Source of the DNA: Bacillota bacterium
GTDB taxonomy: Bacteria; Bacillota; UBA4882; UBA10575
Length of the DNA stretch: 32,000 bases
NCBI GenBank assembly: GCA_012838955.1
Contig: DUOH01000006.1
Span: 1-32,000, forward strand
Reading direction: 5' to 3'
Shown: one piece after another, positions 2,593 through 17,480 of the stretch
Layout: the number at the start of each line of letters is the position of its first letter
Numbering within the stretch: the stretch's first letter is position 1
Translations under genes and position numbers: made by a program
Notes under the pieces: generated by a model
Database searches by the model: none
What the model saw: only the letters and a program-made list of their open reading frames with translations
Told to the model about the DNA's origin: nothing

Positions 2593-3351
2593 CTATTGAG
2601 AACCGCTATTCTCCTCTTCCCCGGTCTCTTCCTGGTCATCCTCATCTACTTCCATATGGATCTCCACTCCTCTTATGGCCTCAAAGATCTTTTTCTGTAG
2701 ATTGATGGTGATCTCCTCTCCCCAGACTTCCTCCTGATCCCGCTGTAGATAGACGTTCCCGGAGAAAGTCATCATTTCTTCCCGGTCAAGATAGACTAGC
2801 CTTTGGGCGCTTACCGTAAAGTCTTTATGTTCCATCAGCACATCGGTAACGGCCGTAAAGTCCTTCGTCTCCGTATTAAGCTCCAGAATGTGACAGGACA
2901 AAACAATCTGCTCCTTGTCGACCTTGCCTTCTGCATCCCTGGTTTCTGCCCGCTCCAGCCGGACATTCCCGGTAAAAACTCCCCGGTCTTCCTCAAAACT
3001 AATCTCCAATTCATCTCCGGTGATGGTTACCTCTTCCTGTACCAGCTTTACCCCGCCGCTGAAGACCGCTAGCTTCTTCGCTTTGTCCATCCGAGCGCGA
3101 GGCGCGTAAATAACGGTCCGTTCCTGAGTGGCCACGAGCCTACCCTCGAGAAAAGTCTGGTCGCCATCGGTCTCTCCCCAGATCCGGTCGACCCCTGTGA
3201 CTTTGACCTTTCCGCCGGCCCGGGCCGGGCCGGAATGGTAAAACAGTATAAAACAGAGAGCAGCAAGAGTAAGTATGAACGAAAAAAAACAAGATTGGTA
3301 AGACCGCGTTGGAGTGCACGGCGATAAAAAGCTCCTTTGTTTATGGTTCAT
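2593..3351 (-). CDS. lptA: LptA-like periplasmic LPS-transport protein (OstA N-terminal beta-jellyroll repeats), acidic C-terminal tail
   Basis: 252 aa with a signal/anchor ending PARA-GG. Repeated OstA-type strands: VTITGDELEISFEEDRGVFTGNVRL, LSCHILELNTETKDFTAVTDVLMEH, FTVSAQRLVYLDREEMMTFSGNVYL. The start overlaps the lptC stop as ATGA (3348-3351). Sits in an lptD-lptC context. Confidence 0.65.
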   Translation of the reverse strand: MNHKQRSFLSPCTPTRSYQSCFFSFILTLAALCFILFYHSGPARAGGKVKVTGVDRIWGETDGDQTFLEGRLVATQERTVIYAPRARMDKAKKLAVFSGGVKLVQEEVTITGDELEISFEEDRGVFTGNVRLERAETRDAEGKVDKEQIVLSCHILELNTETKDFTAVTDVLMEHKDFTVSAQRLVYLDREEMMTFSGNVYLQRDQEEVWGEEITINLQKKIFEAIRGVEIHMEVDEDDQEETGEEENSGSQ

Positions 3352-3992
3352 AGCTCCAACTCCACCTCGATCTCTTCTTCCAAAACGTAACGTTCCTCTT
3401 TGCCATAATACTTCAGGGATTTACCGCGGGCTGTATAATCCCCCTCCTCCAGCAGGACCTCCCCGGTAAAGACGAGAGCCTCCGTATCCAAGTTTCCCGT
3501 CATTTGCTGAGCCTCGATCCGTAGATCATCATGAAAAAATATAATCTTTCCAGGAGCCTCAATCTCGTTGGTCTCCGTATTCACCTGGGCTTCCTCTGTT
3601 TCAAACCCACCCTGGTTAATACGGCCCTTGATCCCACCGCCCAACCGCAAGATATTAGTGCGCATATTCATCTCAGCCCACGGGGCGCTGAAAGAAAGAT
3701 GCTCACTTCTGCCGTTGTCTGTTGTTGTTTTGTAGATGACGGCTTCGGAGAGGTTCTGAAAGATGATGGTTTTTTCGTCCTTCGAACGCCAAATGGTCTC
3801 GGCTTTAACCTCCCACTTAGGCTCTTGCTTCTTCCAACCGATCAGATTCGATCCCAGGAGGGTCATCCCCTGCTTCCCCACGGGAATCTGCGGTGGGAGC
3901 TCTTTCCGCGGACGCCAGGTCAGGACCGCCAAGCCGACCAGGACTATTCCCCAAAAAAGTTTGGACTGAAAAACCTTAACTATGATAGACAT
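3348..3992 (-). CDS. lptC: LptC-like membrane-anchored LPS-transport protein
   Basis: The track ORF (3348-4148) overlaps the lptD 3' end. I prefer the internal ATG at 3992 (MSIIVKVFQSKLFWGIVLVGLAVLTW...), which gives a single N-terminal TM helix followed by a beta-rich periplasmic domain of LptC size. An alternative start is ATG 4043. The call rests on architecture and position between lptD and lptA. Confidence 0.5.
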   Translation of the reverse strand: MSIIVKVFQSKLFWGIVLVGLAVLTWRPRKELPPQIPVGKQGMTLLGSNLIGWKKQEPKWEVKAETIWRSKDEKTIIFQNLSEAVIYKTTTDNGRSEHLSFSAPWAEMNMRTNILRLGGGIKGRINQGGFETEEAQVNTETNEIEAPGKIIFFHDDLRIEAQQMTGNLDTEALVFTGEVLLEEGDYTARGKSLKYYGKEERYVLEEEIEVELEL

Positions 3993-4029
3993 GAGTCTCC
4001 GGACAACCTCCACACGCCGACAGGCGTCG

Positions 4030-6249
4030 TTAATTTCCGCCATAACTAAATCCCTGATCACTATTGCCAAAGCCGAATCCGGCATTGGGAAATACTTTAT
4101 ACTGGAATTGCAGGGAATACTCTTCACGGATAGTATCGTATCCCACATAGAGCTCCCGGCAATGCCAATCGTAGATCAAACCGAAACGGGATCTTTCAAA
4201 TCCGTCACCGAAGAAAGAGTATAAAACGTCTACATTGGCGGAGAGCGCCTCAAAAAGTCTCACTTTCAGCTTGGCGTCCAAATCCAGGGTGGACCAGACC
4301 TCCTCCCGGGGGTTATAGATCAGATCCAAACGGAGGTGATTATATTCATCAGGATTATAACGGGCAACCAGAGTGACAAGGCCGAATTCTCTGTCGTTAG
4401 GGTTGTATGAGGTATTAAAATCAACCCGGTTGTTCTCGTTGACATTCCACACTACGGAGGTGGTCATCAGATGCCAAGGATTTTTCTGACCGCTCAAATT
4501 ATAGCCCCCTGCCAGGTTGGCTTGGAGATACGCGCTCCGATAAGAAAGGCCGCTCCGGAAGTTTCCATATGGCATGTAGTATGAACTATTATTCACCAAC
4601 TGATAAAACCTGGTGGGTGCGGCGCCGTCCGCCTCGGTCCAGGTCAATTGATTACGCCACGTCAGTCTGGGCGTAATCTTCTGTACCCCCTCCAAACCGA
4701 AAGTTAAAGCTCTGCGCATGTACTCCCCCTGATCAACCCAGTAGTTTTGCTTACGTAACGACCCGATCAGGTTTAAACTGAAGTTACCCACCTCCAGCAG
4801 TGGTTGGGGCTGACGATTCAATACAAATTCGCTCCGTTCCCCTTCTACCATGGTGGGAACTTCCCGTAAACGCAGATAATCCAGGTTCACCTGGTAATCG
4901 CCGAGAAAATCCATATTAAACCGGGGAGTCTCCATAGAAAGATAAGGATAGCGATTCCAGTCCCGCCAATAAGGGTTGGGTTCGGATGAAAGATCCCTGG
5001 ACTCGGTGATTTCAACCCGGAACTTGAAAGGGTCACCGCCGTAAACCGCCCAATTATGATAGAAGTTAAGCGCATACCGGTACTTTTCGGTGATGCGTTG
5101 ATAACTATCTGCATAAACGGGACTCTGATAATCATAAAGCCCGGAGTAGGCTAACCTCGTTTGGCTGGTAGGCCTCCATTCCAAATTCAGCTTAGGTTCG
5201 GCATAAAAAATCGGATCATAATAATTACTGTCTACTCCCGTATCCAAAGTTAATGTGAACGGCCAGATTCTATCCCTCCCATGAAGCTGACCATATAGAC
5301 TATACTCCTCATCCCACCAGTCGTAGGGCGAAGTCCTCAACCAGTACTCATAGGCTAATGAATAATCATATATAGAATTGATCCGGTGTTTCCAGTCGAA
5401 TCCCAATTGATAATCATCGCTGAAGTACAGTTGATCGGCAAAATGATAGAGACTCACCGAGAGCTCTTTGTCTTCCTCTAATTGGAAATTATGGAGAATT
5501 CCTTCACCGACTCCTCTCCGCTGGTATAGGTCCAGAAGTAACCGGCCGTCACCTCCGGAGTTTAAATAGTATCTATATACCACTTTGAGGAACCAACCGT
5601 CTGTTTCATTATAGCCAAGAACTGTTTCATTGAAATTATTTGCCCGCTCTTTCAAAGAGTACGTCAGTTTCGGCCAGTAAAAGACGGGATATTTACCTTC
5701 GTAATATGTAATCCGGTAAAAGACAATCCGATCACCCGGGTAATACTCTACCTGCTTGGCAGTGAGATGGTAGTGGGGATTTTCCAAATCACAAGAGGTA
5801 AAGTAAGCGCTCTGAAATTTCAGCGTCTCCCCCTCGATCTCCATCTGCTCTCCGGACATGAGCATGGGTTCACCGGTCTCCGAGACCCACTCCGCATGGC
5901 AGTCCAAGAAGCTTCCTTGTTCTTGGCGAAGATTATAGGAAAGGTTCTCTCCGAAGATGACCTCTGCGTCCTGCTCCAACTCGGTCAAACCAGAAGTTTC
6001 GATCTGATCTTTCTTGACCAAAATTTTCAGTTCAGAACAGCGGATCACCGTATCCTGATATTTCAATTCCGCATTTCCCCGGGCGACGATCACCTCTCCA
6101 TCATAATCATAGGTGATCTCCTCGGCAGTGAGTACCGCTTTTTGTCCATCCTGGGTTCCTCCAGCCGCTTCCACTACGTTCAGGGGCCAAGAGCACTGCA
6201 TCAGTAGCACCCCGAGAAACGCTGCGGTTAGCTTGAGTATGAACTTCAT
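4030..6249 (-). CDS. lptD: LptD (OstA) outer-membrane LPS-assembly protein
   Basis: 739 aa with a signal peptide ending VVEA-AGG. N-terminal OstA domain (LTAEEITYDYDGEVIVARGNAELKYQDTVIRCSELKI). Then a long Tyr/Trp/Asn-rich region of alternating pattern typical of a large beta-barrel. RBS GAAGGAGG. Confidence 0.8.
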   Translation of the reverse strand: MKFILKLTAAFLGVLLMQCSWPLNVVEAAGGTQDGQKAVLTAEEITYDYDGEVIVARGNAELKYQDTVIRCSELKILVKKDQIETSGLTELEQDAEVIFGENLSYNLRQEQGSFLDCHAEWVSETGEPMLMSGEQMEIEGETLKFQSAYFTSCDLENPHYHLTAKQVEYYPGDRIVFYRITYYEGKYPVFYWPKLTYSLKERANNFNETVLGYNETDGWFLKVVYRYYLNSGGDGRLLLDLYQRRGVGEGILHNFQLEEDKELSVSLYHFADQLYFSDDYQLGFDWKHRINSIYDYSLAYEYWLRTSPYDWWDEEYSLYGQLHGRDRIWPFTLTLDTGVDSNYYDPIFYAEPKLNLEWRPTSQTRLAYSGLYDYQSPVYADSYQRITEKYRYALNFYHNWAVYGGDPFKFRVEITESRDLSSEPNPYWRDWNRYPYLSMETPRFNMDFLGDYQVNLDYLRLREVPTMVEGERSEFVLNRQPQPLLEVGNFSLNLIGSLRKQNYWVDQGEYMRRALTFGLEGVQKITPRLTWRNQLTWTEADGAAPTRFYQLVNNSSYYMPYGNFRSGLSYRSAYLQANLAGGYNLSGQKNPWHLMTTSVVWNVNENNRVDFNTSYNPNDREFGLVTLVARYNPDEYNHLRLDLIYNPREEVWSTLDLDAKLKVRLFEALSANVDVLYSFFGDGFERSRFGLIYDWHCRELYVGYDTIREEYSLQFQYKVFPNAGFGFGNSDQGFSYGGN

Positions 6250-6373
6250 TATCTACGGGGCCTCCTTCGCGCGCCGTAGTTTACCACGGTTGAGCGGGGA
6301 CCATGGACCGACTGATTACTGGGCCGGGCAGCGGTGAAAACTGCTTCATTACCTGACCGCAGGGGAAGAAAGA

Positions 6374-7450
6374 CTATCTGATGACTCTATTCAATAGAAC
6401 AACCCCGAGCGTCAAATAGATTAAATTAGGAATCCAGGCCGCCCAAAACGGGTCAATTATACTATTCACTCCGAAAGTCCGAAAGATCACTTGTGAAAAA
6501 TAGTAAGTAAAGATGAAAGCCAAACTGATCCCCATGCCCAGTACCCGGCCGCTTCTTGGCATCAAACACGAAAAAGGCAGACCGAGAATAGCTAGTACCA
6601 ATGAAGCATAAGGAACCGCCAGTTTTAGATGGTAATCCACTCTAAAAACTGAAACATCAAAACCACTCTGGCCAAAAAGTTCCATATGCTTCTTCAATTC
6701 CGCCCGGGTCATCTCTTCAGTGCTCCGGGTATCACCTAAATAGGCGCTTAAATCTTCCCCCACGTTTACATTCATCTCGGCAAATCCCGCTTCCACTTTT
6801 ACAAATCCTCGATCATCCAGTTCGTGAATGACGCCTTCCTTCAACTGCCAACTAGTCTGGTCGATCCAGCCATACCTGGCAGTTATCAGACGGGGAAACT
6901 CTGCGGTGGTGGTTGCTTCATAAATCATCACCCCTTCCAGCCGTTTCTCCAGTCCGTTAATTCGTCGCACATAAAAATACCTGTCATCCGGTCCTTTGAA
7001 ATAGACATTCTCCTCCACTTGGGGCGCTATCTCTTGAAGGCTCAACCTCCTCATTTCCTGGTGATATCGGTGATTAGCCGCAGGGACCACCCGGTCATTG
7101 AAGAAAAAAACCCCTGTGGACAAGAGCAAAGTAAAGATCAAGATCGGAGAGACCAGTCTGGGAAAGCTAATACCGCAAGTGCGCATCACATCAAGTTCCC
7201 GGTCTTTGGAGAGCCGGCCCATGCCGAAGAAGATCCCGAACAATACTGCCGCGGGAATTATATCCATCAACAGGTAGGGGATCCGGTAGTAAATTAAGAG
7301 CATCACAACGGAGAGCGGGACCCTCCGGCCCACTAAGAAGTTGTTTAATTCAAAAATCAATTCTCCTATGTAGATCACTAAAAATCCCACTGTACAGAAG
7401 ATGAACTGGACAAGGAATTCTTTCAGTAAGTAGCGGTGGATTTTTTTCAT
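6374..7450 (-). CDS. LptF/LptG-family LPS export permease (YjgP/YjgQ)
   Basis: 358 aa. N-terminus IHRYLLKEFLVQFIFCTVGFLVIY... is the family-typical start. Layout is three TM helices, a roughly 130-aa periplasmic insert, then three TM helices. Only one copy lies in the window. Confidence 0.8.
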   Translation of the reverse strand: MKKIHRYLLKEFLVQFIFCTVGFLVIYIGELIFELNNFLVGRRVPLSVVMLLIYYRIPYLLMDIIPAAVLFGIFFGMGRLSKDRELDVMRTCGISFPRLVSPILIFTLLLSTGVFFFNDRVVPAANHRYHQEMRRLSLQEIAPQVEENVYFKGPDDRYFYVRRINGLEKRLEGVMIYEATTTAEFPRLITARYGWIDQTSWQLKEGVIHELDDRGFVKVEAGFAEMNVNVGEDLSAYLGDTRSTEEMTRAELKKHMELFGQSGFDVSVFRVDYHLKLAVPYASLVLAILGLPFSCLMPRSGRVLGMGISLAFIFTYYFSQVIFRTFGVNSIIDPFWAAWIPNLIYLTLGVVLLNRVIR

Positions 7451-7627: not shown

Positions 7628-7656
7628 AAAAAAAACCGGAAAATATCTTTCCGGTT
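7628..7656 (-). terminator. Rho-independent terminator after lpxD
   Basis: The minus strand reads AACCGGAAA-GATAT-TTTCCGGTT followed by TTTTTT: a 9-bp perfect stem, a 5-nt loop and a U-tract. It lies 42 nt after the lpxD stop. Confidence 0.85.
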
Positions 7657-7697: not shown

Positions 7698-8747
7698 TTA
7701 GTTATTCCCTTTTTCTTGACCTTCTTCTTCCAATTTGGCCAGTCGCTTCTCCAGATTCCTGACGATCTTAAGTAAATCCGGTAACTTACCGGCAGCGGCC
7801 TGTATTCTCATGTCTTCAGCATGAGGACGGGCCGGTTGACCGGAGACGAAAGAGTTGGGGGGCAGATTTCCGATGACCATTCCCCTGGCCGCAACCACCG
7901 AGTCTGAACCGATACTAATATGGCCGACGATGCCCGACTGTCCGGCCAAGGTAACCCGGTCGCCCAGTCTAGTGCTGCCTGCTACTCCAGACATGGAAAC
8001 GATGATATTGTCCTCGCCGACCTGCACATTATGGCCGATTTGCACCAAGTTATCAATTTTAGTCCCTTTTTTGATCAAAGTTTCACCGGTTGTAGCCCGG
8101 TCGATGGTAACATTTGCGCCAATCTCCACATCATCTTCGATTCGGACTCTGCCGACTTGCGGAACCTTGAAATGCTCTCCCTTCACCGTCACAAAGCCGA
8201 AACCATCGGCACCAATCACTGTTCCCGGATGAATGATTACTCTTTCCCCGATCTCTGTCTGATTTCGAATCACCGCGTTGGAATAGATTTCCGTATCATT
8301 ACCGATGACAGTATCATCTTCTATGACCACTCCCGGGTGAATTCGCACTCTTTCTCCGAAAGTGACATTTTTTCCTATATAAACCAGGGGACCGATACTA
8401 CAACCAGGACCGTATTTGAAACCTTCTTCAATTACCGCTGAAGGATGGATTCCTTCCACTGTTTCCGGTTTTGGATGAAAATACCAAAGAATTTTCGCAA
8501 AGGCCAATCTAGGGTTGTCCACCTTAATACAGGCCAAACCGAGTTCAGGAAGGTTACTTGGGATAATAAAAGCCGAAGCCTTACTCTCCCTGGCCAGATC
8601 AGCCACTTTGACGGTAGCCACCAACGAAATCATTCCCGGTTGCGCATCCTCTAAGCCGGCAACCCCGGTAATCTCCAAATTTTTGTCACCCACAACTTCT
8701 CCTTGCACCAGTTCTGCCAGTGTGCCCAAGGTAGCCATAAAAACCAC
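7698..8747 (-). CDS. lpxD: UDP-3-O-acylglucosamine N-acyltransferase LpxD
   Basis: 349 aa. N-terminal uridine-binding domain (LGTLAELVQGEVVGDKNLEITGVAGLEDAQPGMISLV). Long left-handed beta-helix hexapeptide repeats (IHPGVVIEDDTVIGNDTEIYSNAVIRNQTEIGERVIIHPGTVIG, DDVEIGANVTIDR). C-terminal helix. The start is GTG 8747 or ATG 8738 (AAGGAGG lies upstream). Confidence 0.92.
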   Translation of the reverse strand: MVFMATLGTLAELVQGEVVGDKNLEITGVAGLEDAQPGMISLVATVKVADLARESKASAFIIPSNLPELGLACIKVDNPRLAFAKILWYFHPKPETVEGIHPSAVIEEGFKYGPGCSIGPLVYIGKNVTFGERVRIHPGVVIEDDTVIGNDTEIYSNAVIRNQTEIGERVIIHPGTVIGADGFGFVTVKGEHFKVPQVGRVRIEDDVEIGANVTIDRATTGETLIKKGTKIDNLVQIGHNVQVGEDNIIVSMSGVAGSTRLGDRVTLAGQSGIVGHISIGSDSVVAARGMVIGNLPPNSFVSGQPARPHAEDMRIQAAAGKLPDLLKIVRNLEKRLAKLEEEGQEKGNN

Positions 8748-8819: not shown

Positions 8820-9794
8820 TCATGATCTGGGTATATCCGCGCCTTCCCGCTTCAGTTCTTCTTCTTTTCTTCGTTGCCAAGCGACGAAATCCTCTTCCAA
8901 TCTGGATTTTTCTTCTTGATAACGAATTCTCATTTCCATTAACAATTCTCGCTCAAAGTTGACCAGTTCCGCTTCGCCGGCGGCAACCCGCCTTTGGATA
9001 AACGCGGCAAGTTCCTCTTCAAATTCAGCCGTCCTGGTCACCGTTTTAACTTGCATCTCGTCTTTAATCTTTGCCATTTCTTCTTTTAGTCTCACCTGAT
9101 CCTCTTCAGGCAACCCCGGCAATTGCAGTTTAAATTGGATATTTGTCAACTGCAGAAAATATTCGGCCTCGATCTGCTTATTGTATTCAGTAATCTTCCT
9201 CTCCATACTCAATCTCTTATCTTCAGTGGCTTCCTCAATTTCTTTGCTGATCTGCTCTTTTTTCTTTTGCAATCTGGATTGAAATTCCCGCTCAAGATCA
9301 GCGGCAAAGCGTTTTAAGGTTTCCGCGTTAAGTTGAGCGCGTTCCCTTATTTCAAGCCGGTAGGAGAGGAGCTCTGATAAAGCATCCCCTTGGTTATTCC
9401 GCCGTTTCTCCTCTGCTGAATGTCTGGAAGTGACGGCCGAATTTTTCGGGCCCCAGTTGGTAATCTGCTGAAAAAAAGCGTTTACTTCTTTGCGTAAACT
9501 TCCATAAGCCGACCAGGAACCCTTTGTTTCCTGGGACAAATTACCGGTCGATCCTGCGGTCGTCTCCGTACTCTCCGCAATGGAAATCCGTGCTTCTTTG
9601 CGATCACTAAATAAGCCTCTTTTACCGATGGTGAAAAGACTAATGATCAGAAGAAGGATGGTTAAGATGGAAATTACGTCGGTTCTTCTTCTCTGTACAC
9701 CCGTAAGCACGCGCGGGCGACCACGAGTAGGCTCATTTCTATAGAGACTATGCAAAAATCTAGTAAAAAGCCTAAAGCGTTTAATCTCTACCAA
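8820..9794 (-). CDS. hypothetical membrane-anchored coiled-coil protein (basic N-terminus, one TM helix, about 200 aa of Glu/Lys/Arg-rich heptad-like sequence)
   Basis: 324-aa ORF with a TTG start. TM segment VISILTILLLIISLFTIG at about aa 40-57. The C-terminal half reads RLEIRERAQLNAETLKRFAADLEREFQSRLQKKKEQISKEIEEATEDKRL...EEKSRLEEDFVAWQRRKEEELKRE. I recognise no family. The start codon is uncertain because the SD AAGGGGA is only 1 nt from the TTG. Confidence 0.55.
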   Translation of the reverse strand: MVEIKRFRLFTRFLHSLYRNEPTRGRPRVLTGVQRRRTDVISILTILLLIISLFTIGKRGLFSDRKEARISIAESTETTAGSTGNLSQETKGSWSAYGSLRKEVNAFFQQITNWGPKNSAVTSRHSAEEKRRNNQGDALSELLSYRLEIRERAQLNAETLKRFAADLEREFQSRLQKKKEQISKEIEEATEDKRLSMERKITEYNKQIEAEYFLQLTNIQFKLQLPGLPEEDQVRLKEEMAKIKDEMQVKTVTRTAEFEEELAAFIQRRVAAGEAELVNFERELLMEMRIRYQEEKSRLEEDFVAWQRRKEEELKREGADIPRS

Positions 9795-10075: not shown

Positions 10076-10645
10076 TTATTTAGTGGCTTTTTGCGCCTCT
10101 GCGATCACCTTGTCCGTTAAATCCAATCCGCCATAAAAGACCAGTTTTTTCTCGAGAACAACTGTGACTCCGGCCTCTGTGGCTACTTTTTCCACTATGC
10201 CATTGATCTTCTCCATCACCTTCTCATATTCCCGTTGTAGCTCTGCGGACAATCTCGCTCTTTCATTCTGGATTTTGCTCTGACTTTCTACCATAATTTT
10301 CTGCAATTTTTCGTTATACTCTTTATCAATGGCGTTCTTCTCTTCTGTATTCTTCCCTTGTTTCTTTTCGTCCCGTTCTTTTTCCAAGCGGACGCGGTCA
10401 TTATTAAACTGGGTCTGAATATACTGTGCATAGGAGTTTAATTCCGCATCTTTGCTTTGCGCCAATTTTTGAAAGTCCTGTAACTCCTGTAAACTACTTT
10501 GGATCTTTTCCATGTCAATATATCCTACAGTCTGCTTCGGAGCGGCCGCCCGAACTGTGCTATTGACGAAGACAAAAGCCACGGAAAAAACCAAGACTAC
10601 CGCAAGTATACTGATTATAGGGTTCTTTTTCATAATATCTCTCAT
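10076..10645 (-). CDS. skp: OmpH/Skp-family periplasmic chaperone
   Basis: 189 aa with a signal peptide ending VRA-AAP. Shows VGYIDMEKI, then a long charged coiled region, then the C-terminal GVTVVLEKKLVFYGGLDLTDKVI typical of OmpH. Located next to bamA. Confidence 0.8.
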   Translation of the reverse strand: MRDIMKKNPIISILAVVLVFSVAFVFVNSTVRAAAPKQTVGYIDMEKIQSSLQELQDFQKLAQSKDAELNSYAQYIQTQFNNDRVRLEKERDEKKQGKNTEEKNAIDKEYNEKLQKIMVESQSKIQNERARLSAELQREYEKVMEKINGIVEKVATEAGVTVVLEKKLVFYGGLDLTDKVIAEAQKATK

Positions 10646-10766: not shown

Positions 10767-12488
10767 TTAAAACATCTCGGAGATGAAGAAGTGTGTTTTT
10801 TGCTCTCCTTCTTGATCCCAGGCAAAATCAAGACGGAGCTGCCCTAAGAAAGGCACTATATACCTAACACCGATCCCGTAACCATAGTTGAACTCCTCAC
10901 GATCTACGGACCCCACGTCATAAAAGGCTACCAGCTCGACGTTTTCATTGGCGGAAAACCTCTGCCTTAACTCGAGATTGGCTAAGAATAAATCAGTTCC
11001 TTCAAAAACACCAGTACTATAACCTCTTAGCGACATGGGACCGCCGATTTCAAACTTGCCGGTAACCGGCACCTCGCCAACCATAGTTCCGCCCTTTACC
11101 CGATAGGCAAAAGTGGTATACTGCCAAGGAGAAATGAATTGTTTATATTCCGCGAGATATTGTTGGTAATCATATTCGCCCCCCAGATAACGCCCGTGTA
11201 AGCTGGTACTTAACTTAGCCCAGTATCCATCGACACTATAGAATATATTAGCCAATTCCCTCTTATCCTGCACGAGACCAATCCCGAAACTATTGTCCCA
11301 GTACTCATTATCAACAGGTAGCGCTACGGAAGCAAGCAAATTGCCTTGCGGATCAATTTCAACTTTTTCAAATTGCAGCGAAGTGTCGACTCGCAGATCA
11401 TGGGCTAAGGGGCGTCCCAGGCTTAGCTCCAAGCCTGTACCCTTCTCGTCGTAATTAAAATTGCCAAATCCATAATCATCGCCATCCAGATCGAAATCGT
11501 AATTGGCGTACATAGTCAGACCAAAAGAAGTTTGCTTATCGTCAAGCCATGGTTCATAAAACTCAAAACTCAAATGATAAAAGTCTTCCGGATTCATTTC
11601 CACGTTAAACGAGATCCTTTGTCCCAAACCGATCAAATTCGGTTCCATCACTGAAACGAAGCCCGCCAACTGGCTGGATTTGGGCGTGTAAGTTATACCA
11701 AAGTTAAACTGAGCGGTTTGCCCTTCCTCAAACTCCAAAAGCAAATCCATGACTTCAGGATCGGAAGTGGGTTGAGGAAGCGGTCTGATCTCTTTAAAAA
11801 GTTGCAGTCTGGTTAGGCGTTGATAATCGTAGCGTAGCTTATTCATATCGAACAACTCGTTTTCCTGCATGGTTAATTCCCTGGTGACCACCGTTTCCTT
11901 GGTCTTCTCCAAACCTTCGATTTTGATCTTGCCCAGCTTCACCTCGGTCATGTGCAGAGTAACCACGCCATCTGCGGAGATGGCAGTCTGTTTTTCTAGG
12001 ACGGTTAAGACCAAACCCTTTTCTTGCTGATATTTTGTGATGGCTGTGCTTAAATCTTCCCGAATCTGCGCGTAATTTATGATCTCTCCCTGTTTCTGTG
12101 TGAAATGTTTGATGATCTCCTCAGGGTCGGCCTTTTTTAAGCCGATAATTTCAAACTTCTGAAAAACAGGGTTTTCATGAACCTCAAAAACGAGCTTCAC
12201 CCCACCGATAAACGGCTCGGTATGGGCATCCACTGCGCTGAAATAACCCAATTGATTAATAGCGTTCAAATCCTTCTTGACTGCTTCCTGATCAAGAGGT
12301 TCGCCCAAACGAATATTTGTTACTACCCTGAGAATCGTATCTTCGTTAATATGCTGATTACCAGTGACCTCCACCGAGAGAACCAATGGCGTGGTCACAG
12401 TTTCTTCGATGGCCTGAGCGGGAGCGGTAAACGCAACTGTAAAAAAGAGCAATGGGCAGAGTAAGATCTTAAAAACTAACTTCACCAA
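10767..12488 (-). CDS. bamA: BamA/Omp85-family outer-membrane protein insertase (POTRA repeats + 16-strand barrel)
   Basis: The track ORF begins at 12539. AAGGAGG at 12494-12500 favours TTG 12488 (or GTG 12485), which gives the signal peptide VKLVFKILLCPLLFFTVAFTAPAQA. POTRA-like units: VLSVEVTGNQHINEDTILRVV..., FEIIGLKKADPEEIIKHF..., KIEGLEKTKETVVTRELTMQENELF. The C-terminal barrel ends in ...HFFISEMF (terminal Phe). Confidence 0.85.
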   Translation of the reverse strand: MVKLVFKILLCPLLFFTVAFTAPAQAIEETVTTPLVLSVEVTGNQHINEDTILRVVTNIRLGEPLDQEAVKKDLNAINQLGYFSAVDAHTEPFIGGVKLVFEVHENPVFQKFEIIGLKKADPEEIIKHFTQKQGEIINYAQIREDLSTAITKYQQEKGLVLTVLEKQTAISADGVVTLHMTEVKLGKIKIEGLEKTKETVVTRELTMQENELFDMNKLRYDYQRLTRLQLFKEIRPLPQPTSDPEVMDLLLEFEEGQTAQFNFGITYTPKSSQLAGFVSVMEPNLIGLGQRISFNVEMNPEDFYHLSFEFYEPWLDDKQTSFGLTMYANYDFDLDGDDYGFGNFNYDEKGTGLELSLGRPLAHDLRVDTSLQFEKVEIDPQGNLLASVALPVDNEYWDNSFGIGLVQDKRELANIFYSVDGYWAKLSTSLHGRYLGGEYDYQQYLAEYKQFISPWQYTTFAYRVKGGTMVGEVPVTGKFEIGGPMSLRGYSTGVFEGTDLFLANLELRQRFSANENVELVAFYDVGSVDREEFNYGYGIGVRYIVPFLGQLRLDFAWDQEGEQKTHFFISEMF

Positions 12489-12677
12489 GTCAGCCTCCTT
12501 CTTTGGAACTGGGTGATACAAAAAGGTTTCAATTTTCATGTGCGTATTGCCGTTGCAAGCGTTTCTGGCGCCGCCTTAAAGGAAATTCGTTATACAACCT
12601 GAGTTTCCTGCCACCGTTGGGGAAAGATTTTACGGAAACTATGGCAAATATTAGCAGGCGCGAGCAAGCAGGCATGA

Positions 12678-15600
12678 TTAAAACATTAGTCTGTACAACA
12701 GTTGCCATTCATATCCGGAATTATTGGAATAGTCCCCGATTAAGGAGAATGACGGCGATAATTGCCATTCCAGTGTCCAAACTTCCTCTGTAATATCAGT
12801 CAAGCTTCTGCTGTAAGAGAGGTAAACATCGTCATCTAAAGATTTTCCCAAATTCATTTTGAAGCTTCCTAAATCACGATCCTGTTCTACACTTAAATAA
12901 TCTATATTCATCAGATCCCGAAACTCATCCATCACCGGTCCGAACAAGGTATCTGTCACAGTATTAATGTTGCCTTGCACCAGATTGGCCACGAAAATCT
13001 GATCAGAGGAGTTTGCAAAACCTTCCGCCCAATTAAGCAGTGCGAAGATCTCTTCTCTGGTCATCGCCGGATTCGAAGTCAGATGCAGAGCCAATTCATC
13101 ACCTAACCAACCCTGGGTGCTTAAGGTAATCTCTGTACCGGAGAGATGAAGGTCCGCCTCCAACTCAAGATAAGGCAGGGTCAGATACTCCGGTTTAAAC
13201 TCCGCCCTGGCCGTATTAATCCGGAAGGTGTCTCCATAGACCGTAACCGAACCTCGATCGGCGGTGAACTCTCCGTTCAACACCGGTTGCTTAAGCGTCC
13301 CCCCCACATGAACTCCTCCACTGATTGGAATATTGGCTAATCCGTATTGACGGAAGTAAACGTCACGACCGGCTCTAATATCCAGGTCAAAACGGAGAGT
13401 CAAATCACTCGGGGAACCCGAAGAATTTAACGAGCCTATAGAGATCCGGGTCTTTTCTACAGTAACACCTCCGCTCAGTAGAGGCTCGGTGAAAGGTCCG
13501 GATAATTGCAACCGGGCGTCGATCAACCCTTTAAAAAGTGGATTTTCATAATGCAGATTGTCTCCGCTGAAGCTAAGGTCAAAGTCAACCGGTTTTAAGC
13601 CACGGAGCGCAATACCGCCCCCGGCATGAAAACGTCCATCTCCATACCTGCCTTTTAACTCCGTAATCTCCAAACGATCCTTGGAAAAGTTCAGCTTGCC
13701 TTGGACATTGCGAAACTCTTCGGGCAATCCGCGAAAAGTGGCGCCCAGATCATTTACCTCCAATCTACCCTGTAAATATAGGTTATTCCATATCCCTTTT
13801 AACGACAAGTCACTGTTGATAGTTCCGGATTGCAGGCGATTCCCGCTGGACAGCGGAACGTCCAATGATGAACCGGCTTCCGGTGAGTCGGCAAAAAACG
13901 GATTAAGCAAAACGGCTTCCAAATCATCGGCCACCAGCCTTACGTTCCATTCCTGGTTTTGATGGGGCCACCGGCTCGGCAGATCCAGGGGGCCAAACCA
14001 TTGAGGGCTTAACGGTATATTACCCCAAATCTTGAGTTTATCCTCAACTCCTTCATAATTTATGAAGAGTAAATCATCATCAAGTTCTCCGGTAAGATGA
14101 AAGGAGGGAATTCTGGTCTTGCCGAAGAAGGCGTCGGAGATCCCCCCGGAAAATACTCCGGTCATTCCCTGTGGCAAAGTATCAAAATCCGCCTGTAAAT
14201 TGACACGGCCGGTGAAACCCTGATCATAATCGGTCAAAGCCACTATGGTTTCCAGGGGAAAGTTACTCATCCTGACTGATGCTTGCAGATATTTACCAGG
14301 AGTGTAGACGCCGGAAGCCGAGAATTGTCCCTCCCGGTCATCCAGTAACAACCTGTTGATCGCAACGGTCTTCCCTTCCATCTGTAGATCCAGTTCTCCT
14401 GAAATATCGCTGAAACCGTTCACCCGTCCCTCCCGAAATTGGGAGATGACCCGAACGAGCGGCTGATTTAACGGACCCAATACCCGAAGATATCCGTCAA
14501 CTTTCCCGTCGACAGTAGCCTTGCTGGAGGCGCCGAGCACCAACAATAGATCGGAGATCCTCGCCTCCTCCATTTTAATACCTAAGTCAAGAGCAGGTTT
14601 TTCTTGGTGAAGAGTGCGGTTAAAATCCACTTGCCCATAGGCCATCAGTTGCTGATCCGCACGGTTCACCCGTAATTCATCGAGGAACAGGATCTTATCC
14701 CTCCAGATTAATTTACCGGTGATCTGATCCAAATCTAAACCAGCCAGGCTTAATTCGTCTACCTTTACCTCTCCGTTAAAAACCGGCGCAGTTATCTTTC
14801 CGGAAATTCTGCCGTCCATCTTCAATTGTCCGGTGATTTCTTTCCCTGCTAAAGCCAGAAGATACTCCCCGTTGCGCTGTAGAGCCGTTAAGGGAAGACC
14901 CGTGGTCAGGACGTTTAAATCCAGTTCAGCTCCGGTCATCTTTCCGGTTATGCTCAATTCGCCACCGTCTTGATAAAAACGGAGTTCCTCCAGGCTTAGA
15001 ATACGATTATTCCAGACAAAACCGGCTTTAACCCGCTCCACTGCCATACCATAGAGGGATAATTGATTTAGGGAGAATTCCCCGCTGAGCTCCGGATTTT
15101 TCCATCCTTGAAGCGAAACCCGCACAGCGCCCAAACCATCCACTTGTACCGGACACTCAGGAGACCACAAAAGCGAGAGGATGGGATCAGCAGTGATATC
15201 TGTACCGTACAGGCGCAAATCATAATAAGGTTGCTGCTCCCAACAGACTTCTCCCGTAATCCTCAGTTGATTGCCTTCCACCAGCAAACTTGAGTCTTGA
15301 AGCTCGATCCGCCGCCCGGCAAGAATTCCGCGGAGTTTAAGATCACCAAGGCGTTTTTCCGCATATGTCAAGTTATGCACTTCCAGCCAGCCCTCACCCA
15401 CCGGACCTTTCTGCTCATTTTGCACATTAATGGAGCCATTGAGCTTTCCTTGAAGCGCGCCTTGCTCGGACCAGACTTCTCCCGGCAGCCATCGGGAATC
15501 CACTTCCAAATTGCGCAGGAGAAGATCGGCAGAGAAATTACTGGTCCCGGGTTTCCACACCACATCCCCGCGCATGGCGCCATCTGCTTTCGTCAAGGCT

Positions 15601-17480
15601 AACCTGGCGGTGACTTCTTCTTGATCCCAAAAGATTTTGGTGTCTAACAGATCAAACTCGAACCCGCCGACACTTGCCTTCCGTACATTCAAATCACAAA
15701 CAGCCTGCAGAGACGGGAGAGAGCCGTTTAACGTCAGTTGGAAGTCGGCTCGGCCGGTCAGGGCAGGAACCTCTTCCGCTACCTCTCGCCAAGGGATCTT
15801 GGCCAGATCAACCTGCTTCCAGTCGGTTTTTAAGTCCAAGACCATTCGATCCCGTAAGGAGCCGACGGCGCCTTTGATCCTTCCCTCCCCTGCAAACGAC
15901 CGCAAAGTTAAGGATTGGATCTTTAACAAATCTTCTTCCCAGTCGTATTCTCCGGAGAGATGAAGATTCTTCCCGGAGAAACCGCGCCAGCAAAGAAAAG
16001 AAGTATGCATCTCCCCTTTGATCAACGGAGCAGATAACCTCTTGCTGATCTGCACATCAAGATCTACCGGACCGGAGTCCAAGGACACGTGCTGGCTTAG
16101 GTCCAAAGCGGACAGGAGCTTCCCGCCTTGGAAACCTTTAATTTTGAAGGCCAGATCCAAGTCGGGATCGTCCCATCCGTTCAGTGTGCCTCTTAAAAAG
16201 AAAAGCGCCTTATTTAAATATCCCTCCGCATAAGTCAGTCTGATTTCTTCTCCATCAAGTTCGGCAAAGAGACGTAAGTGTTCCAAGTTGAAGTCTCCTC
16301 CCGGAAGAGAAAAACTGCCGTCCTTCAGCCGGACCTCTCCCTGAAGCTGCGGTTTATTGAGGGCTCCCTGTATCCGCAGGTTCAGATCGACCAGACCGGA
16401 GGCGCCCACCTTGTGCAAGGCGGGAACAAGACCACTCCACTCAACGGCCTGTAGTTCCTTGGCGTATACCTTTAGATCCACCGTCGCCGGCTGGGTGGGG
16501 GTTTCAGTACTGATCCCGCCCTTAATATCAAACTGACTTTGGTTGTAGTAACCTTTGAACCGGTGAAAATCAATGCCTTCAGCGTCAAAATCAAACTCCG
16601 CATCCACCGCTTCTAAGGGAGCGGGGAGTTTATGCCATTTGAAATCTGTATCAACCAGACGAACCTTAGCCGAAGTAAAGCGGAACCTTTCACCCCAGGA
16701 GAAACGTAATACAGCGTCAGCTTTACCTGCAGTAAACCTGTAATCATCAGTGAGCTTAAAATAGCCAAAGACCTTTTCTCCCCACAGCCGGGCCTCGCCA
16801 TTCTCCGCTTCAATCTCTACAGATCTTTTCCCGCCGTTCACGAAGTTAATGATTATTCTGCCCTCCGCTTCCGCATCAAGAGAGCTTCGGAAGGATAATG
16901 AACCTTTGATTCTGGAATAACCCCGCAGATTCACCTCACCATCTATGGCGAAGAAATCTCCCCACGGCCACTTCTCTTCCGAAGCTGTGATCTGAAGATT
17001 CCCGTTATGGATCGCCACAACCATCCCGAGTTTTCTCTGCTTTCCTGAGGTTTTACTCTTCTCCCGGAAAGTCTCGGGAACAACCCATCTTCCGTCTTCT
17101 CCTCTGGTCATCCAGACAGTAGGAGTAAAAATATCCACCTTCTGTAAAGCGCCGGAGAAACCGGTGAAAATCAGCTTAAACCAGTTAAAACTGATTCTGA
17201 GTTTCTCCGCCTCTAATAGCCGCCGCCCATCCGCCTCGCTAATCTTGATCCCGGATAATTCCGGCGACCATCCATAAAAACCCACTTGTTCAATGCTGAC
17301 CTTAATCCCAAAAGTCTTGAAAACACTTTCCTCAATTTTAGACTTCACCACAGCGGCAACCTGGTTGTTTCGCAAGATAACTCCAGGAATTATCAGCATT
17401 GAAATAATCAGGAAACACAAAATAATAAGGGGAACATAGATTTTTGAAGAAAATAACTTCAATCCAGTTCCCCCCTTCAT
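12678..17480 (-). CDS. tamB: TamB/AsmA-like giant periplasm-spanning protein (N-terminal TM anchor, C-terminal DUF490-like region)
   Basis: 1600 aa with the N-terminal TM helix IYVPLIILCFLIISMLIIPGVIL. Shows repetitive beta-rich G..L.G.V-type modules. The C-terminus reads ...VYLSYSRSLTDITEEVWTLEWQLSPSFSLIGDYSNNSGYEWQLLYRLMF. An alternative start is TTG 17462, behind AAGGGGGG. Sits directly upstream of bamA. Confidence 0.8.
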   Translation of the reverse strand: MKGGTGLKLFSSKIYVPLIILCFLIISMLIIPGVILRNNQVAAVVKSKIEESVFKTFGIKVSIEQVGFYGWSPELSGIKISEADGRRLLEAEKLRISFNWFKLIFTGFSGALQKVDIFTPTVWMTRGEDGRWVVPETFREKSKTSGKQRKLGMVVAIHNGNLQITASEEKWPWGDFFAIDGEVNLRGYSRIKGSLSFRSSLDAEAEGRIIINFVNGGKRSVEIEAENGEARLWGEKVFGYFKLTDDYRFTAGKADAVLRFSWGERFRFTSAKVRLVDTDFKWHKLPAPLEAVDAEFDFDAEGIDFHRFKGYYNQSQFDIKGGISTETPTQPATVDLKVYAKELQAVEWSGLVPALHKVGASGLVDLNLRIQGALNKPQLQGEVRLKDGSFSLPGGDFNLEHLRLFAELDGEEIRLTYAEGYLNKALFFLRGTLNGWDDPDLDLAFKIKGFQGGKLLSALDLSQHVSLDSGPVDLDVQISKRLSAPLIKGEMHTSFLCWRGFSGKNLHLSGEYDWEEDLLKIQSLTLRSFAGEGRIKGAVGSLRDRMVLDLKTDWKQVDLAKIPWREVAEEVPALTGRADFQLTLNGSLPSLQAVCDLNVRKASVGGFEFDLLDTKIFWDQEEVTARLALTKADGAMRGDVVWKPGTSNFSADLLLRNLEVDSRWLPGEVWSEQGALQGKLNGSINVQNEQKGPVGEGWLEVHNLTYAEKRLGDLKLRGILAGRRIELQDSSLLVEGNQLRITGEVCWEQQPYYDLRLYGTDITADPILSLLWSPECPVQVDGLGAVRVSLQGWKNPELSGEFSLNQLSLYGMAVERVKAGFVWNNRILSLEELRFYQDGGELSITGKMTGAELDLNVLTTGLPLTALQRNGEYLLALAGKEITGQLKMDGRISGKITAPVFNGEVKVDELSLAGLDLDQITGKLIWRDKILFLDELRVNRADQQLMAYGQVDFNRTLHQEKPALDLGIKMEEARISDLLLVLGASSKATVDGKVDGYLRVLGPLNQPLVRVISQFREGRVNGFSDISGELDLQMEGKTVAINRLLLDDREGQFSASGVYTPGKYLQASVRMSNFPLETIVALTDYDQGFTGRVNLQADFDTLPQGMTGVFSGGISDAFFGKTRIPSFHLTGELDDDLLFINYEGVEDKLKIWGNIPLSPQWFGPLDLPSRWPHQNQEWNVRLVADDLEAVLLNPFFADSPEAGSSLDVPLSSGNRLQSGTINSDLSLKGIWNNLYLQGRLEVNDLGATFRGLPEEFRNVQGKLNFSKDRLEITELKGRYGDGRFHAGGGIALRGLKPVDFDLSFSGDNLHYENPLFKGLIDARLQLSGPFTEPLLSGGVTVEKTRISIGSLNSSGSPSDLTLRFDLDIRAGRDVYFRQYGLANIPISGGVHVGGTLKQPVLNGEFTADRGSVTVYGDTFRINTARAEFKPEYLTLPYLELEADLHLSGTEITLSTQGWLGDELALHLTSNPAMTREEIFALLNWAEGFANSSDQIFVANLVQGNINTVTDTLFGPVMDEFRDLMNIDYLSVEQDRDLGSFKMNLGKSLDDDVYLSYSRSLTDITEEVWTLEWQLSPSFSLIGDYSNNSGYEWQLLYRLMF

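Follow-up and report, generated by a model that had tools for sequence, protein, structure and literature searches.

An outer-membrane biogenesis cluster with an LptD homologue, linked to spoVA genes, in an uncultured member of the Bacillota

Genes for lipopolysaccharide (LPS) transport and outer-membrane (OM) assembly share a 32,000-nucleotide stretch of Bacillota DNA (the whole stretch analysed, hereafter the window) with a sporulation operon, which raises the question of whether both belong to one diderm spore-forming lineage and whether that lineage or its gene order is new. Very likely, the window holds the OM biogenesis cluster of an uncultured diderm member of the Bacillota, of the OPB54 / Hydrogenispora-Capillibacterium / 'Limnochordia sensu lato' group, on its native chromosome and about 10 kb from spoVA. 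The taxonomic placement is suggested by protein similarity to named metagenome-assembled genomes (MAGs), the closest named relatives by this measure being Hydrogenispora and Capillibacterium MAGs.

Gene content and organization of the cluster

An earlier note on this DNA had named eight genes of OM biogenesis (lptA, lptC, lptD, lptF/G, lpxD, skp, bamA and tamB). All eight are present where it had placed them, on the minus strand, and Pfam and NCBIfam models back every one except lptD. The features of the window are as follows.

2593..3351 (-), lptA: Pfam LptD_N 4.6e-14; TIGR03002 4e-12, below cutoff
3348..4148 (-), lptC, likely true start about 4043-4070: TIGR04409 2.7e-12, 46.6 bits vs cutoff 38
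4030..6249 (-), lptD, 739 aa: profile and structure evidence
6374..7450 (-), lptF/G, one gene: Pfam LptF_LptG 2.1e-91
7634..7656 (-), intrinsic-terminator-like hairpin and U-run between lpxD and lptF/G: consensus scan, RNA fold
7698..8747 (-), lpxD: NF002060 5.9e-113; TIGR01853 358 bits vs cutoff 242.5
8820..9794 (-), cc324, conserved unknown, 324 aa: family alignment of 17 sequences
10076..10645 (-), skp/ompH: Pfam OmpH 3.6e-15, 56.8 bits vs cutoff 32.4
10767..12539 (-), bamA: Pfam Omp85 3.6e-36, POTRA 3.2e-23; TIGR03303 3.7e-60
12678..17480 (-), tamB, 1600 aa: Pfam TamB 2.2e-43, DUF748 8.6e-13
17660..19576 (-), secreted S55 (SpoIVB-like) domain protein, about 607-638 aa: Pfam Peptidase_S55 1.2e-11, aa 46-130 only
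19922..26635 (-), pilB-type ATPase, prepilin peptidase, SLT lytic transglycosylase, pterin-binding protein, class A PBP: Pfam
27308..29384 (+), spoVAC-spoVAD-spoVAEB: Pfam SpoVAC_SpoVAEB 3.8e-37 and 2.4e-31; SpoVAD 1.6e-141

Homology and gene order suggest a function for the cluster in two parts. The genes (S55 protein)-tamB-bamA-skp-cc324-lpxD may form one transcription unit, a putative operon that would supply the OM protein insertase BamA (Omp85, whose POTRA repeats are joined to a barrel domain of the 16-strand type), the periplasmic chaperone Skp/OmpH for outer-membrane proteins, the AsmA-like TamB, which is inner-membrane-anchored and spans the periplasm, and LpxD, the UDP-3-O-acylglucosamine N-acyltransferase of the third step of lipid A synthesis and the sole lipid A enzyme that the window encodes.

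The earlier note had the cluster too small: the S55-domain protein and cc324 also belong to it as conserved members. The cc324 gene, in the gap between skp and lpxD, had been overlooked; it encodes a membrane-anchored protein with an N-terminal TM helix, a W-x-x-Y motif and a long charged coiled coil, and it has no match in Pfam, NCBIfam or PDB sequences. Most of the relatives examined have a homologue in that gap (17 were aligned), and a 323-aa protein at the same position in Halothermothrix orenii matches it with an hhalign probability of 96.8% (E 2.8e-10), while its relation to Skp is weak (probability 62%). The true upstream end of the cluster is the S55-domain gene, one gene beyond tamB. 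Homologues of its product number 611 and include proteins of Halanaerobiales, Negativicutes and Limnochordia; the gene immediately precedes tamB in H. orenii and one Limnochordia MAG, and lies upstream of mlaEFD-tolC-tamB in one Veillonellaceae MAG. It marks the OM cluster's upstream edge in each lineage of diderm Firmicutes sampled. Its AF2 model has a pLDDT of 80 and matches the SpoIVB fold only locally; because non-sporulating Veillonella also has an S55 protein (PMC5491611), it is not SpoIVB proper.

The terminator that had been claimed after lpxD was recovered by both scan and fold as a hairpin at 7656-7634 with a 9-10 bp stem and a U-run (dG -11.7 kcal/mol, z -3.0), and it probably separates two transcription units. 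Beyond it, an RBS and an extended -10-like motif (TGtATAAT) stand before the lptF/G start. The second unit would be a translationally coupled lptF/G-lptD-lptC-lptA operon, in which the start of lptC overlaps the 3' end of lptD and the lptA ATG overlaps the lptC stop (ATGA). It would encode the membrane and periplasmic parts of an LPS export bridge in which an LptF/G permease, presumably a homodimer, works with LptC anchored in the inner membrane, LptA in the periplasm and LptD as the OM translocon. The lptF/G product scores 195 bits with the TIGR model for LptG and 186 bits with that for LptF, below both equivalog cutoffs, and is thus a single undifferentiated permease. LptC is an OstA-fold protein with the TM segment FWGIVLVGLAVLTW (translation) and is 231-240 aa long in independent gene calls, which start at about 4043-4070. 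LptA, the OstA-fold bridge protein, starts with a signal peptide and ends in an acidic tail, and its gene is kept downstream of lptC in relatives whose locus extends that far; the downstream cluster boundary is also conserved among relatives. None of lptB, lptE, lpxA/B/C/K, kds, msbA or ompM is found within the 32,000-nt window, which therefore does not establish a complete LPS pathway; LptB as the ATPase, the other enzymes for lipid A and Kdo and, if there is one, an LptE-like plug would have to be encoded elsewhere.

The LptD homologue

The earlier assignment of lptD finds no match in the Pfam and NCBIfam LptD models for the 739-aa protein, but it stands on profile, fold and cysteine evidence. 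A signal peptide is followed by an N-terminal beta-jellyroll (about aa 38-200), and some 540 aa form a beta-barrel region. Profiles of the family find N. gonorrhoeae LptD among PDB sequences at 1.3e-9 and 1.2e-13, and reach PF04453/PF19838 proteins at 1e-12 to 1e-15. In a Foldseek search with the predicted structure, the top 35 matches are all LptD (best 1.3e-22, TM about 0.5). The model is only moderately confident (pLDDT 61, <50 for residues 195-430) and does not fix the number of strands. An invariant cysteine pair, C153/C697, aligns with E. coli C173/C725 (FTSC and WHC motifs), and an identical protein carries the name LptD at NCBI. LptF/G is fused to this LptD family in three divergent metagenomic ORFs, and an unrelated 8.2-Mb genome likewise has lptFG next to lptD. 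Together these data show that the protein is an LptD homologue.

Compared with proteobacterial LptD (E. coli b0054; PDB 5iv9, 4q35, 7omm), the protein shares the signal peptide, the N-terminal OstA beta-jellyroll, the ~540-aa barrel region, the FTSC cysteine (C173) and the C-terminal cysteine (C725), with a full-length Foldseek match at 1e-22. It differs in that identity is only 10-17%, Pfam PF04453 does not detect it, the C31/C724 pair is missing and no LptE, LptM or LptY partner gene is nearby; here lptD lies inside an lptFG-lptC-lptA operon, whereas the E. coli genes form three separate loci. Acetonema longum, a diderm Firmicute that sporulates, also has one LptF/G, no LptE and jellyroll-plus-barrel proteins encoded near LPS genes, namely F7NLY8 (480 aa, 16 strands) and F7NII2 (26-strand type, low confidence). 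In size, the 739-aa protein of the window corresponds to the 26-strand type and not to the 16-strand protein preferred in that study, in which F7NII2 was judged not to be the functional LptD (PMC13018214).

This A. longum protein and the LptD-like proteins of Borrelia are proposed precedents for an LptD-like barrel with another job, such as a flippase for surface lipoproteins or other lipids, and the missing Pfam match and the lack of LptE fit that idea. Such a role in place of LPS translocation is nevertheless improbable here, as the gene sits between lptF/G and lptC-lptA with its end overlapping the lptC start, this position is kept in at least 20 other genomes, natural LptF/G-LptD fusions exist, and the jellyroll and the C173/C725-type pair are conserved as in LPS translocons. 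In the role of LPS translocon, the protein's jellyroll and large barrel would be locked by a disulfide of the C173-C725 type.

Linkage to spoVA and comparison with known clusters

The spoVAC-AD-AE genes claimed at 27308-29384 were borne out, and they form the dipicolinate-channel operon of endospore formers. A chimeric assembly, with an OM cluster of Gram-negative origin fused to spoVA DNA of a Firmicute, might be suspected from the dip in GC to 0.42-0.44 around 8-12 kb and from assembly ERZ18327520, which splits the region into two contigs between tamB and pilB. The dip, however, coincides with the AT-rich skp, cc324 and bamA genes, no 4-kb window falls outside a tetranucleotide r of 0.81-0.91, the two halves correlate at 0.90, and at least three independent assemblies from different projects (Logan SRR17204923, JGI 3300002898 and ERR11420240) span spoVA to skp in the same order (spoVA...pilB-S55-tamB-bamA-skp) at 99-100% identity. 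The PBP-SLT-S55-tamB linkage also recurs in two relatives (L043 and L044), compared with which pilB/pilD and the pterin-binding gene are extra in the window. The OM cluster and spoVA are thus physically linked, without a compositional break, and a chimeric assembly, which the earlier note had named as a risk, is effectively refuted. It is also improbable that the genes exist without both phenotypes, in a diderm non-sporulator or as a decaying relic in a monoderm. The spoVA genes are the only sporulation genes seen in the window and do not alone prove sporulation, and the S55 protein is no SpoIVB; yet the spoVA genes are intact and score very strongly, all ORFs of the cluster are intact and long (tamB 1600 aa) and 99-100% identical across samples, and the cultured relative Capillibacterium thermochitinicola is Gram-negative and spore-forming with an outer membrane visible by TEM (PMC8375423). 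The reading as a diderm Firmicute of a sporulating group, which the earlier note had proposed, therefore holds by its relatives, and we infer from the genes that the organism itself makes LPS and sporulates.

The suggestion of an undescribed variant or lineage fared less well. The order tamB-bamA-skp-X-lpxD-lptFG-lptD-lptC-lptA occurs in at least 20 other GTDB species-level genomes, including Hydrogenispora, Capillibacterium, UBA5486, UBA5388, UBA11021 and many digester MAGs, and an OM cluster was already known in 46 UBA 'Limnochordia' genomes (Taib et al. 2020, as cited in PMC11456536); the relatives of the window are digester and sediment MAGs of that sort. Novelty is thus unlikely, even though the nearest GTDB genome outside the species has only 44% LptD, 53% BamA and 67-75% LpxD identity, a search of 5.8 billion proteins returned only nine close LptD homologues, and the detached lpxD, the lptD inside the lpt operon and the lack of lptB depart from the published description of Negativicutes and Halanaerobiales. 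The layout also varies among relatives: the UBA4882 clade has it without lpxD, and since lpxD in the close relative L044 is directly followed by an RNaseH-like gene with no lpt module, the position of that module is not universal.

That the order differs from the known Negativicutes/Halanaerobiales arrangement was right (Antunes et al. 2016, PMC5007114; Poppleton et al. 2017, PMC5491611). Common to both are the tamB-bamA-skp core, a single lptF/G, two small OstA-fold proteins (LptC and LptA), lpxD after skp, the absence of BamB-E and LptE, and an S55/SpoIVB-domain protein at the cluster edge; H. orenii also has a no-Pfam coiled-coil protein between its ompH genes and lpxD. In those lineages lpxABCD lie together, lptB is in the lpt unit and LptD is elsewhere or unrecognised, the V. 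parvula gene being about 110 kb from the OM cluster and unrecognised in 2016 (PMC5007114, PMC5491611). In the window, by contrast, no other lpx, kds or waa genes follow lpxD, the lpt unit has lptD and not lptB, and ompM, mla, tolC and sigma-factor genes do not interrupt the cluster. The E. coli-type bamA-skp-lpxD-fabZ-lpxA-lpxB locus shares the bamA-skp-lpxD order; in the window tamB immediately precedes bamA, skp and lpxD are separated by an extra coiled-coil gene and, as had been noted, the terminator and lptFG-lptD-lptC-lptA take the place of fabZ-lpxA-lpxB. The S55-tamB-bamA-ompH-(X)-lpxD backbone is found in H. orenii and in one Limnochordia MAG, L040, where it is contiguous and lpxD is likewise detached from lpxA/C, but followed by an ABC-F ATPase and not by an lpt operon. 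Because identities to L040 are low (BamA 29%, LpxD 49%, S55 34%), the window probably falls in a clade on the Hydrogenispora/Capillibacterium side and not in Limnochordales proper.

An OM cluster in a known rare group of two-membraned Firmicutes is real but largely expected; the useful extra that this locus offers is a clear LptD gene within the LPS-export operon.

Gene content and integrity of the outer-membrane cluster

ORF calling combined with Pfam and NCBIfam scans resolves the minus strand of the window into an unbroken, co-directional series of long ORFs. The genes of the outer-membrane cluster and the spoVA operon are as follows.

Outer-membrane and sporulation genes of the window
2593-3351, minus strand: lptA (Pfam LptD_N, 4.6e-14)
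3348-4148, minus strand: lptC, probable start near 4043-4070 (TIGR04409, 46.6 bits, cutoff 38)
4030-6249, minus strand: lptD candidate, 739 aa (profile and fold evidence)
6374-7450, minus strand: single lptF/G (Pfam, 2.1e-91)
7698-8747, minus strand: lpxD (TIGR01853, 358 bits)
8820-9794, minus strand: cc324, a 324-aa coiled-coil protein (no family)
10076-10645, minus strand: skp/ompH (Pfam OmpH, 3.6e-15)
10767-12539, minus strand: bamA (Pfam Omp85, 3.6e-36)
12678-17480, minus strand: tamB, 1600 aa (Pfam TamB, 2.2e-43)
17660-19576, minus strand: S55-domain protein, ~607-638 aa (Peptidase_S55 model)
27308-29384, plus strand: spoVAC-spoVAD-spoVAEB (SpoVAD, 1.6e-141)

An earlier note, made from the sequence alone, had placed LPS and outer-membrane genes and a spoVA operon at these positions and a terminator after lpxD; the Pfam and NCBIfam scans, the profile and fold evidence for LptD and the hairpin fold confirm them. 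The cluster is larger than the note reported, since the S55-domain protein and cc324 are added here as conserved members. The genes tamB, bamA and skp are contiguous and co-directional, as in the diderm Firmicute outer-membrane cluster. Downstream, the 3' end of lptD overlaps the start of lptC, and lptC in turn overlaps the beginning of lptA at its stop codon. The lpt unit has a single lptF/G (scoring under the equivalog cutoffs of both LptF and LptG), lptC and lptA, with lptD in the place where lptB would be expected. On the plus strand, spoVAC, spoVAD and spoVAEB are adjacent, with scores of 127.6, 471.3 and 108.9 bits (cutoffs 25, 22.1 and 25).

The Pfam and NCBIfam scans found no lptB in the window, nor was an LptE partner lipoprotein found within it. 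Among the lipid A and Kdo genes (lpxACDIBK, waaA/M, kdsABCD) only lpxD lies in the window, the flanks carrying housekeeping genes, as they do in relatives; the remainder must be encoded outside it. The 23 main ORFs scanned contain no OmpM-type SLH or porin domain, and no Rfam families or tRNAs were found in the window. Genes for a pilB-type ATPase, a prepilin peptidase and a pterin-binding (CdhD/AcsE-like) protein occupy 19922-22499 and 23653-24447 on the minus strand. RNase_H_2/PolB-exonuclease-like and LUD-domain genes follow lptA (880-2466, minus strand); eight relatives keep the RNaseH-like gene next to the downstream end of their clusters, and the LUD-domain gene was found only in contigs of the window's own species (L001-L005). 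An 81-aa ORF after spoVAEB ('orf81', 29388-29633, plus strand), called by several pipelines and assemblies, is probably not a gene; its translation consists of low-complexity YYK repeats, and a 15/30-bp tandem repeat lies at 29428-29513 (GC 0.37).

The possibility that outer-membrane and sporulation genes were joined by a chimeric assembly, which the note had named as a refuting outcome, is rejected on the evidence of base composition, of the tetranucleotide profile and of assemblies made independently. Tetranucleotide profiles show no break, with r 0.81-0.91 across the window and 0.90 for the outer-membrane block against the 20-32 kb block; the GC dip at 8-12 kb tracks the AT-richer skp, cc324 and bamA genes. 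Three independent contigs, from Logan SRR17204923 (35.8 kb), JGI 3300002898 (31.2 kb) and ERR11420240 (20.6 kb), agree with the window in gene order at 99-100% protein identity over all or part of the Fe-ADH, spoVA, PBP1A, pterin-binding, SLT, pilD, pilB, S55, tamB, bamA and skp genes.

Identity of the 739-aa protein encoded between lptF/G and lptC

The Lpt, Bam and Tam assignments of the earlier note stand on Pfam or NCBIfam support for lptA, lptC, lptF/G, bamA and tamB, but the LptD assignment finds no match to a curated LptD model. The 739-aa ORF does not match PF04453 even at E<=10, its NF002997 match is not significant, and the only curated hit is a weak LptC/OstA (LptC/LptD_N) match over residues 35-111. 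Profiles built from the family itself give a different picture. A nine-homologue profile searched against PDB sequences retrieves Neisseria gonorrhoeae LptD at 1.3e-9, and a 22-sequence profile does so at 1.2e-13, aligned to LptD residues 90-381 of 7omm, a span that takes in the jellyroll and the initial strands of the barrel. The family profile also reaches PF04453 or PF19838 proteins at 1e-12 to 1e-15. The AlphaFold2 model has an overall pLDDT of 61, with good jellyroll and C-terminal half (pLDDT 77-85 for the jellyroll strands at 39-198; below 50 for residues 195-430). In a Foldseek search of the PDB with this model, the 35 best matches are all LptD (best 5iv9_A, 1.3e-22, full-length, TM ~0.5), and TonB-dependent receptors appear only below them.

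Cysteine positions agree with this assignment. In the alignment with E. coli LptD (Cys 31, 173, 724 and 725), C153 in an FTSC motif corresponds to C173, and C697 in YDWHC (WHC motif) aligns with C725 in YSSCC; both cysteines are invariant in 22 family members. In E. coli LptD, C173-C725 is one of two inter-domain disulfides, at least one of which is needed for function. By alignment, a C153-C697 disulfide may be inferred for the window protein. The region after the jellyroll measures ~540 aa (E. coli, 554 aa) and has ~29 DSSP strand segments, with a pLDDT of <50 over 195-430. As modelled, this region would fit a large, roughly 26-strand barrel and appears to exceed the size of a 16-strand one.

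An exhaustive HMMER search puts this large family at 185 representatives with E<1e-30 and at 1835 with E<1e-10; of ten members sampled, most escape Pfam. A complete LptF/G is fused to the LptD family in three divergent ORFs of ~1080-1100 aa from metagenomes (P0011, at L046:769-4023; P0185; P0272), the join consisting of a linker and an internal signal-peptide-like hydrophobic segment, with TC and HCRE cysteine motifs kept. If these fusions are real, an inner-membrane permease and an outer-membrane barrel would be made as one precursor. In addition, an unrelated 8.2-Mb chromosome (L042; GCA_942493375.1, OW818698.1) encodes at 4919-8178 a 725-aa, Pfam-invisible LptD-like protein directly after lptF/G with a 1-nt overlap, and the lptFG-lptD pairing therefore extends beyond the Firmicute clade of the window. 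The fusions and the adjacency provide independent support for a functional link. Four independent lines of evidence (the profile matches to PDB sequences, the fold search, the reach of the family profile to PF04453 or PF19838 proteins, and the cysteines) support the assignment of the 739-aa ORF as LptD, and gene context agrees.

On homology and gene order, LPS export in this organism may proceed as follows. TamB, BamA and Skp would insert beta-barrel proteins, LptD included, into the outer membrane, and LpxD would contribute to lipid A synthesis. An LptB2(F/G)2 transporter, its LptB encoded elsewhere, would extract LPS, which would pass along an OstA-fold bridge of LptC and LptA to the LptD jellyroll. 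LptD would then insert LPS into the outer leaflet; no LptE plug is recognised in the window.

Conserved gene order, lpt module and two further cluster proteins

The earlier note had raised the possibility of an undescribed variant or lineage, and this proposal is mostly unsupported: a tblastn comparison of the window proteins with all loci recovers the order tamB-bamA-skp(-skp)-coiled-coil-lpxD-lptFG-lptD-lptC-lptA in at least 20 non-self loci, as far as contigs reach. Some variation was found. Two UBA4882-type MAGs (L022 and L023) have tamB-bamA-skp-coiled-coil-small Skp and lptFG-lptD-lptC-lptA with no lpxD between. Four more distant relatives carry a 430-aa gene without Pfam match between bamA and skp (L021:4130-5422, L025:3585-4880, L026:3999-5291, L027:4191-5483) as well as an extra ~140-aa Skp-like gene before lpxD, both of which the window lacks; the 430-aa gene occupies the position of SonA in Negativicutes. 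In the relatives examined the cluster ends at lptA, followed by an RNaseH-like and/or HD/OB-fold gene, MiaB-like, HIT, NfeD and FloA genes, which indicates that the missing lpx genes and lptB are sited elsewhere in their genomes too. Upstream, relatives L043 and L044 have the order PBP1A-SLT-S55-tamB, into which the window has pilB-pilD and the pterin-binding gene inserted. The apparent absence of bamA after tamB in L043 was traced to a 100-N scaffold gap. The proximity of spoVA to the outer-membrane cluster is specific to the lineage of the window, and is a taxonomic marker rather than a functional linkage.

The note's observation that lpxD is not followed by fabZ-lpxA-lpxB, but by a terminator and a complete lptFG-lptD-lptC-lptA unit, holds, and this arrangement differs from the published clusters of Negativicutes and Halanaerobiales. 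The hairpin after lpxD (7656-7634) has a stem of approximately nine pairs followed by a U-run (dG -11.7 kcal/mol, z -3.0). Between this terminator and the lptF/G start, a TGtATAAT extended -10-like motif and a strong RBS are found at 7530-7550 (minus strand), consistent with a promoter belonging to the lpt operon itself. In the unbinned relative L044 (Logan SRR27370449, 11529-12864) the RNaseH-like gene directly follows lpxD, with no lptFG-lptD-lptC-lptA module at the site. Taken with the terminator, this arrangement shows the four lpt genes to form a module that can be separated from the rest.

Residues 46-130 of the S55 protein match the C-terminal part (85 positions) of the SpoIVB S55 peptidase model. 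Within the match lies an invariant GMSGSP motif, the Ser motif thus falling near the N-terminus of a secreted protein, and an invariant FGH motif follows ~170 residues later, the reverse of the His...Ser order of SpoIVB. The AlphaFold2 model (pLDDT 80, pTM 0.81) has no significant match among PDB folds save the local SpoIVB segment. A genuine SpoIVB is therefore rejected, the protein having an otherwise unmatched fold of ~600 aa and occurring also in non-sporulating Veillonella. Full-length homologues (33-36% identity) are found in Halothermothrix, Halanaerobium, Natroniella, Fuchsiella and Negativicutes/Veillonellaceae and Limnochordia MAGs. The gene immediately precedes tamB in H. orenii and in a Limnochordia MAG, and lies upstream of mlaEFD-tolC-tamB in a Veillonellaceae MAG, positions that make it an edge marker of the outer-membrane cluster in each diderm Firmicute lineage sampled. 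Its Veillonella orthologue, Vpar_0521, was flagged as a conserved outer-membrane-fraction protein of unknown function (Poppleton et al. 2017, PMC5491611).

The cc324 protein has a long coiled coil rich in charged residues, together with a TM helix and a W-x-x-Y motif, and most relatives examined encode a homologue between skp and lpxD (17 aligned). A 323-aa protein without Pfam match, encoded between the two ompH genes of H. orenii, is a probable homologue (hhalign 96.8%, E 2.8e-10, a score that coiled-coil composition may inflate). That cc324 is a long Skp/OmpH paralogue is unproven, with an hhalign probability of 62% over 42 columns and no PDB-sequence match. Identity of either cc324 or the S55 protein with SonA/SonB of Negativicutes is rejected on differing architectures (POTRA-barrel, lipoprotein) and positions, the Son genes flanking bamA; in the window, bamA and skp are direct neighbours. 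As conserved cluster members, the S55 protein and cc324 are candidate outer-membrane biogenesis factors.

Host lineage, published clusters and implications for LptD

The identical LptD in NCBI belongs to a TPA MAG named 'Firmicutes bacterium', and in the GTDB species set the species of the window is represented by MAG SMAG_U7079 (L005, 99%). The LptD family at 25-44% identity adds 23 further loci from 22 other genomes of that set, and all 24 related loci are titled Bacillota or Firmicutes. Relatives include Hydrogenispora sp. (DUQQ01), Capillibacterium sp., UBA5486, UBA5388, UBA11021, UBA4882 and many anaerobic-digester MAGs. The organism is distant from the named relatives outside its own species (LptD <=44%, BamA <=53%); L044 is nearer to it than these and is the closest relative found (BamA 57%, LpxD 80%). 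The OPB54/Hydrogenispora-Capillibacterium group is presumably placed in Bacillota_G by GTDB. The reading of the host as a diderm spore-former is supported by the cultured Capillibacterium thermochitinicola of the OPB54 cluster (with Hydrogenispora), which is Gram-negative and spore-forming and has an outer membrane visible by TEM (PMC8375423). Of the sporulation genes, the window itself holds only spoVA. SILVA puts the OPB54 group under Limnochordia (PMC12663870).

A large conserved outer-membrane locus with tamB, bamA, skp and clustered lpxACDIBK/waa/kds genes was described in Negativicutes and Halanaerobiales by Antunes et al. 2016; its four-gene lpt unit combines lptB and one lptF/G with the genes of two OstA proteins, and LptD and LptE were not found in these groups (PMC5007114). 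A citing paper (PMC11456536) credits Taib et al. 2020 with finding the cluster in 46 UBA 'Limnochordia' genomes as well. The window and the known clusters share the backbone, including the S55 and coiled-coil genes, and have one LptF/G; both lack BamB-E and LptE, the latter being unreported in other diderm Firmicutes (PMC5007114, PMC13018214). An S55/SpoIVB-domain 'hypothetical' of the Vpar_0521 type stands at the cluster edge in both. In contrast to the clusters of Negativicutes and Halanaerobiales, lpxD is detached from other lpx genes (as it also is in a Limnochordia MAG), the lpt operon contains lptD and lacks lptB, and no ompM, mla, tolC or sigma-factor genes lie nearby.

Léonard et al. 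found lpt genes clustered only in Proteobacteria in their own sample, while acknowledging Taib's report. The lpt operon of the window is a direct counter-example to Proteobacteria-only clustering, although Negativicutes LptD was reported earlier. In V. parvula, LptD is encoded outside the cluster (Poppleton et al. 2017, PMC5491611), and in a 2026 study of Acetonema, which had two LptD candidates, a 16-strand, 480-aa protein was preferred (PMC13018214). One 2022 evolutionary analysis called lptD absent from 'atypical diderms' (PMC8871954). LptD was reported missing from diderm Firmicutes in 2016, was still called absent from 'atypical diderms' in 2022 and was ambiguous in Acetonema in 2026. With a gene between lptF/G and lptC-lptA, a jellyroll, a large barrel and a conserved key cysteine pair, the window gives the clearest context-based LptD assignment in a diderm Firmicute.

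A broader reading, which we regard as doubtful, is that the 739-aa protein is a true, vertically inherited 'Terrabacteria-type' LptD of a family that curated models largely miss. If so, the lptFG-lptD-lptC-lptA operon together with the fused ORFs would define a minimal LPS machine of diderm Bacillota that works without LptE; in Negativicutes, too, the ancestral LPS translocon would be the 26-strand-type protein rather than the 16-strand one; and the statement that 'atypical diderms never have lptD' (PMC8871954) would be unusable against a diderm Firmicute or bacterial ancestor.

The basic phenomenon is already known; organism and locus are both of a known kind, of which the window is a new and poorly sampled member. 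What it usefully adds is an LptD that is encoded within the operon and bears the canonical hallmarks, a modular lpt unit, and a pair of conserved proteins without an assigned role. A curated profile for this LptD family would improve annotation and calls of outer-membrane presence in MAGs. For the gain or loss of the outer membrane by bacteria, and for the remodelling of an inner membrane into an outer one during spore germination, the main natural model is the diderm spore-forming Firmicutes, of which the window supplies a clean genomic example from a clade that has been little studied, on the OPB54/Hydrogenispora side.
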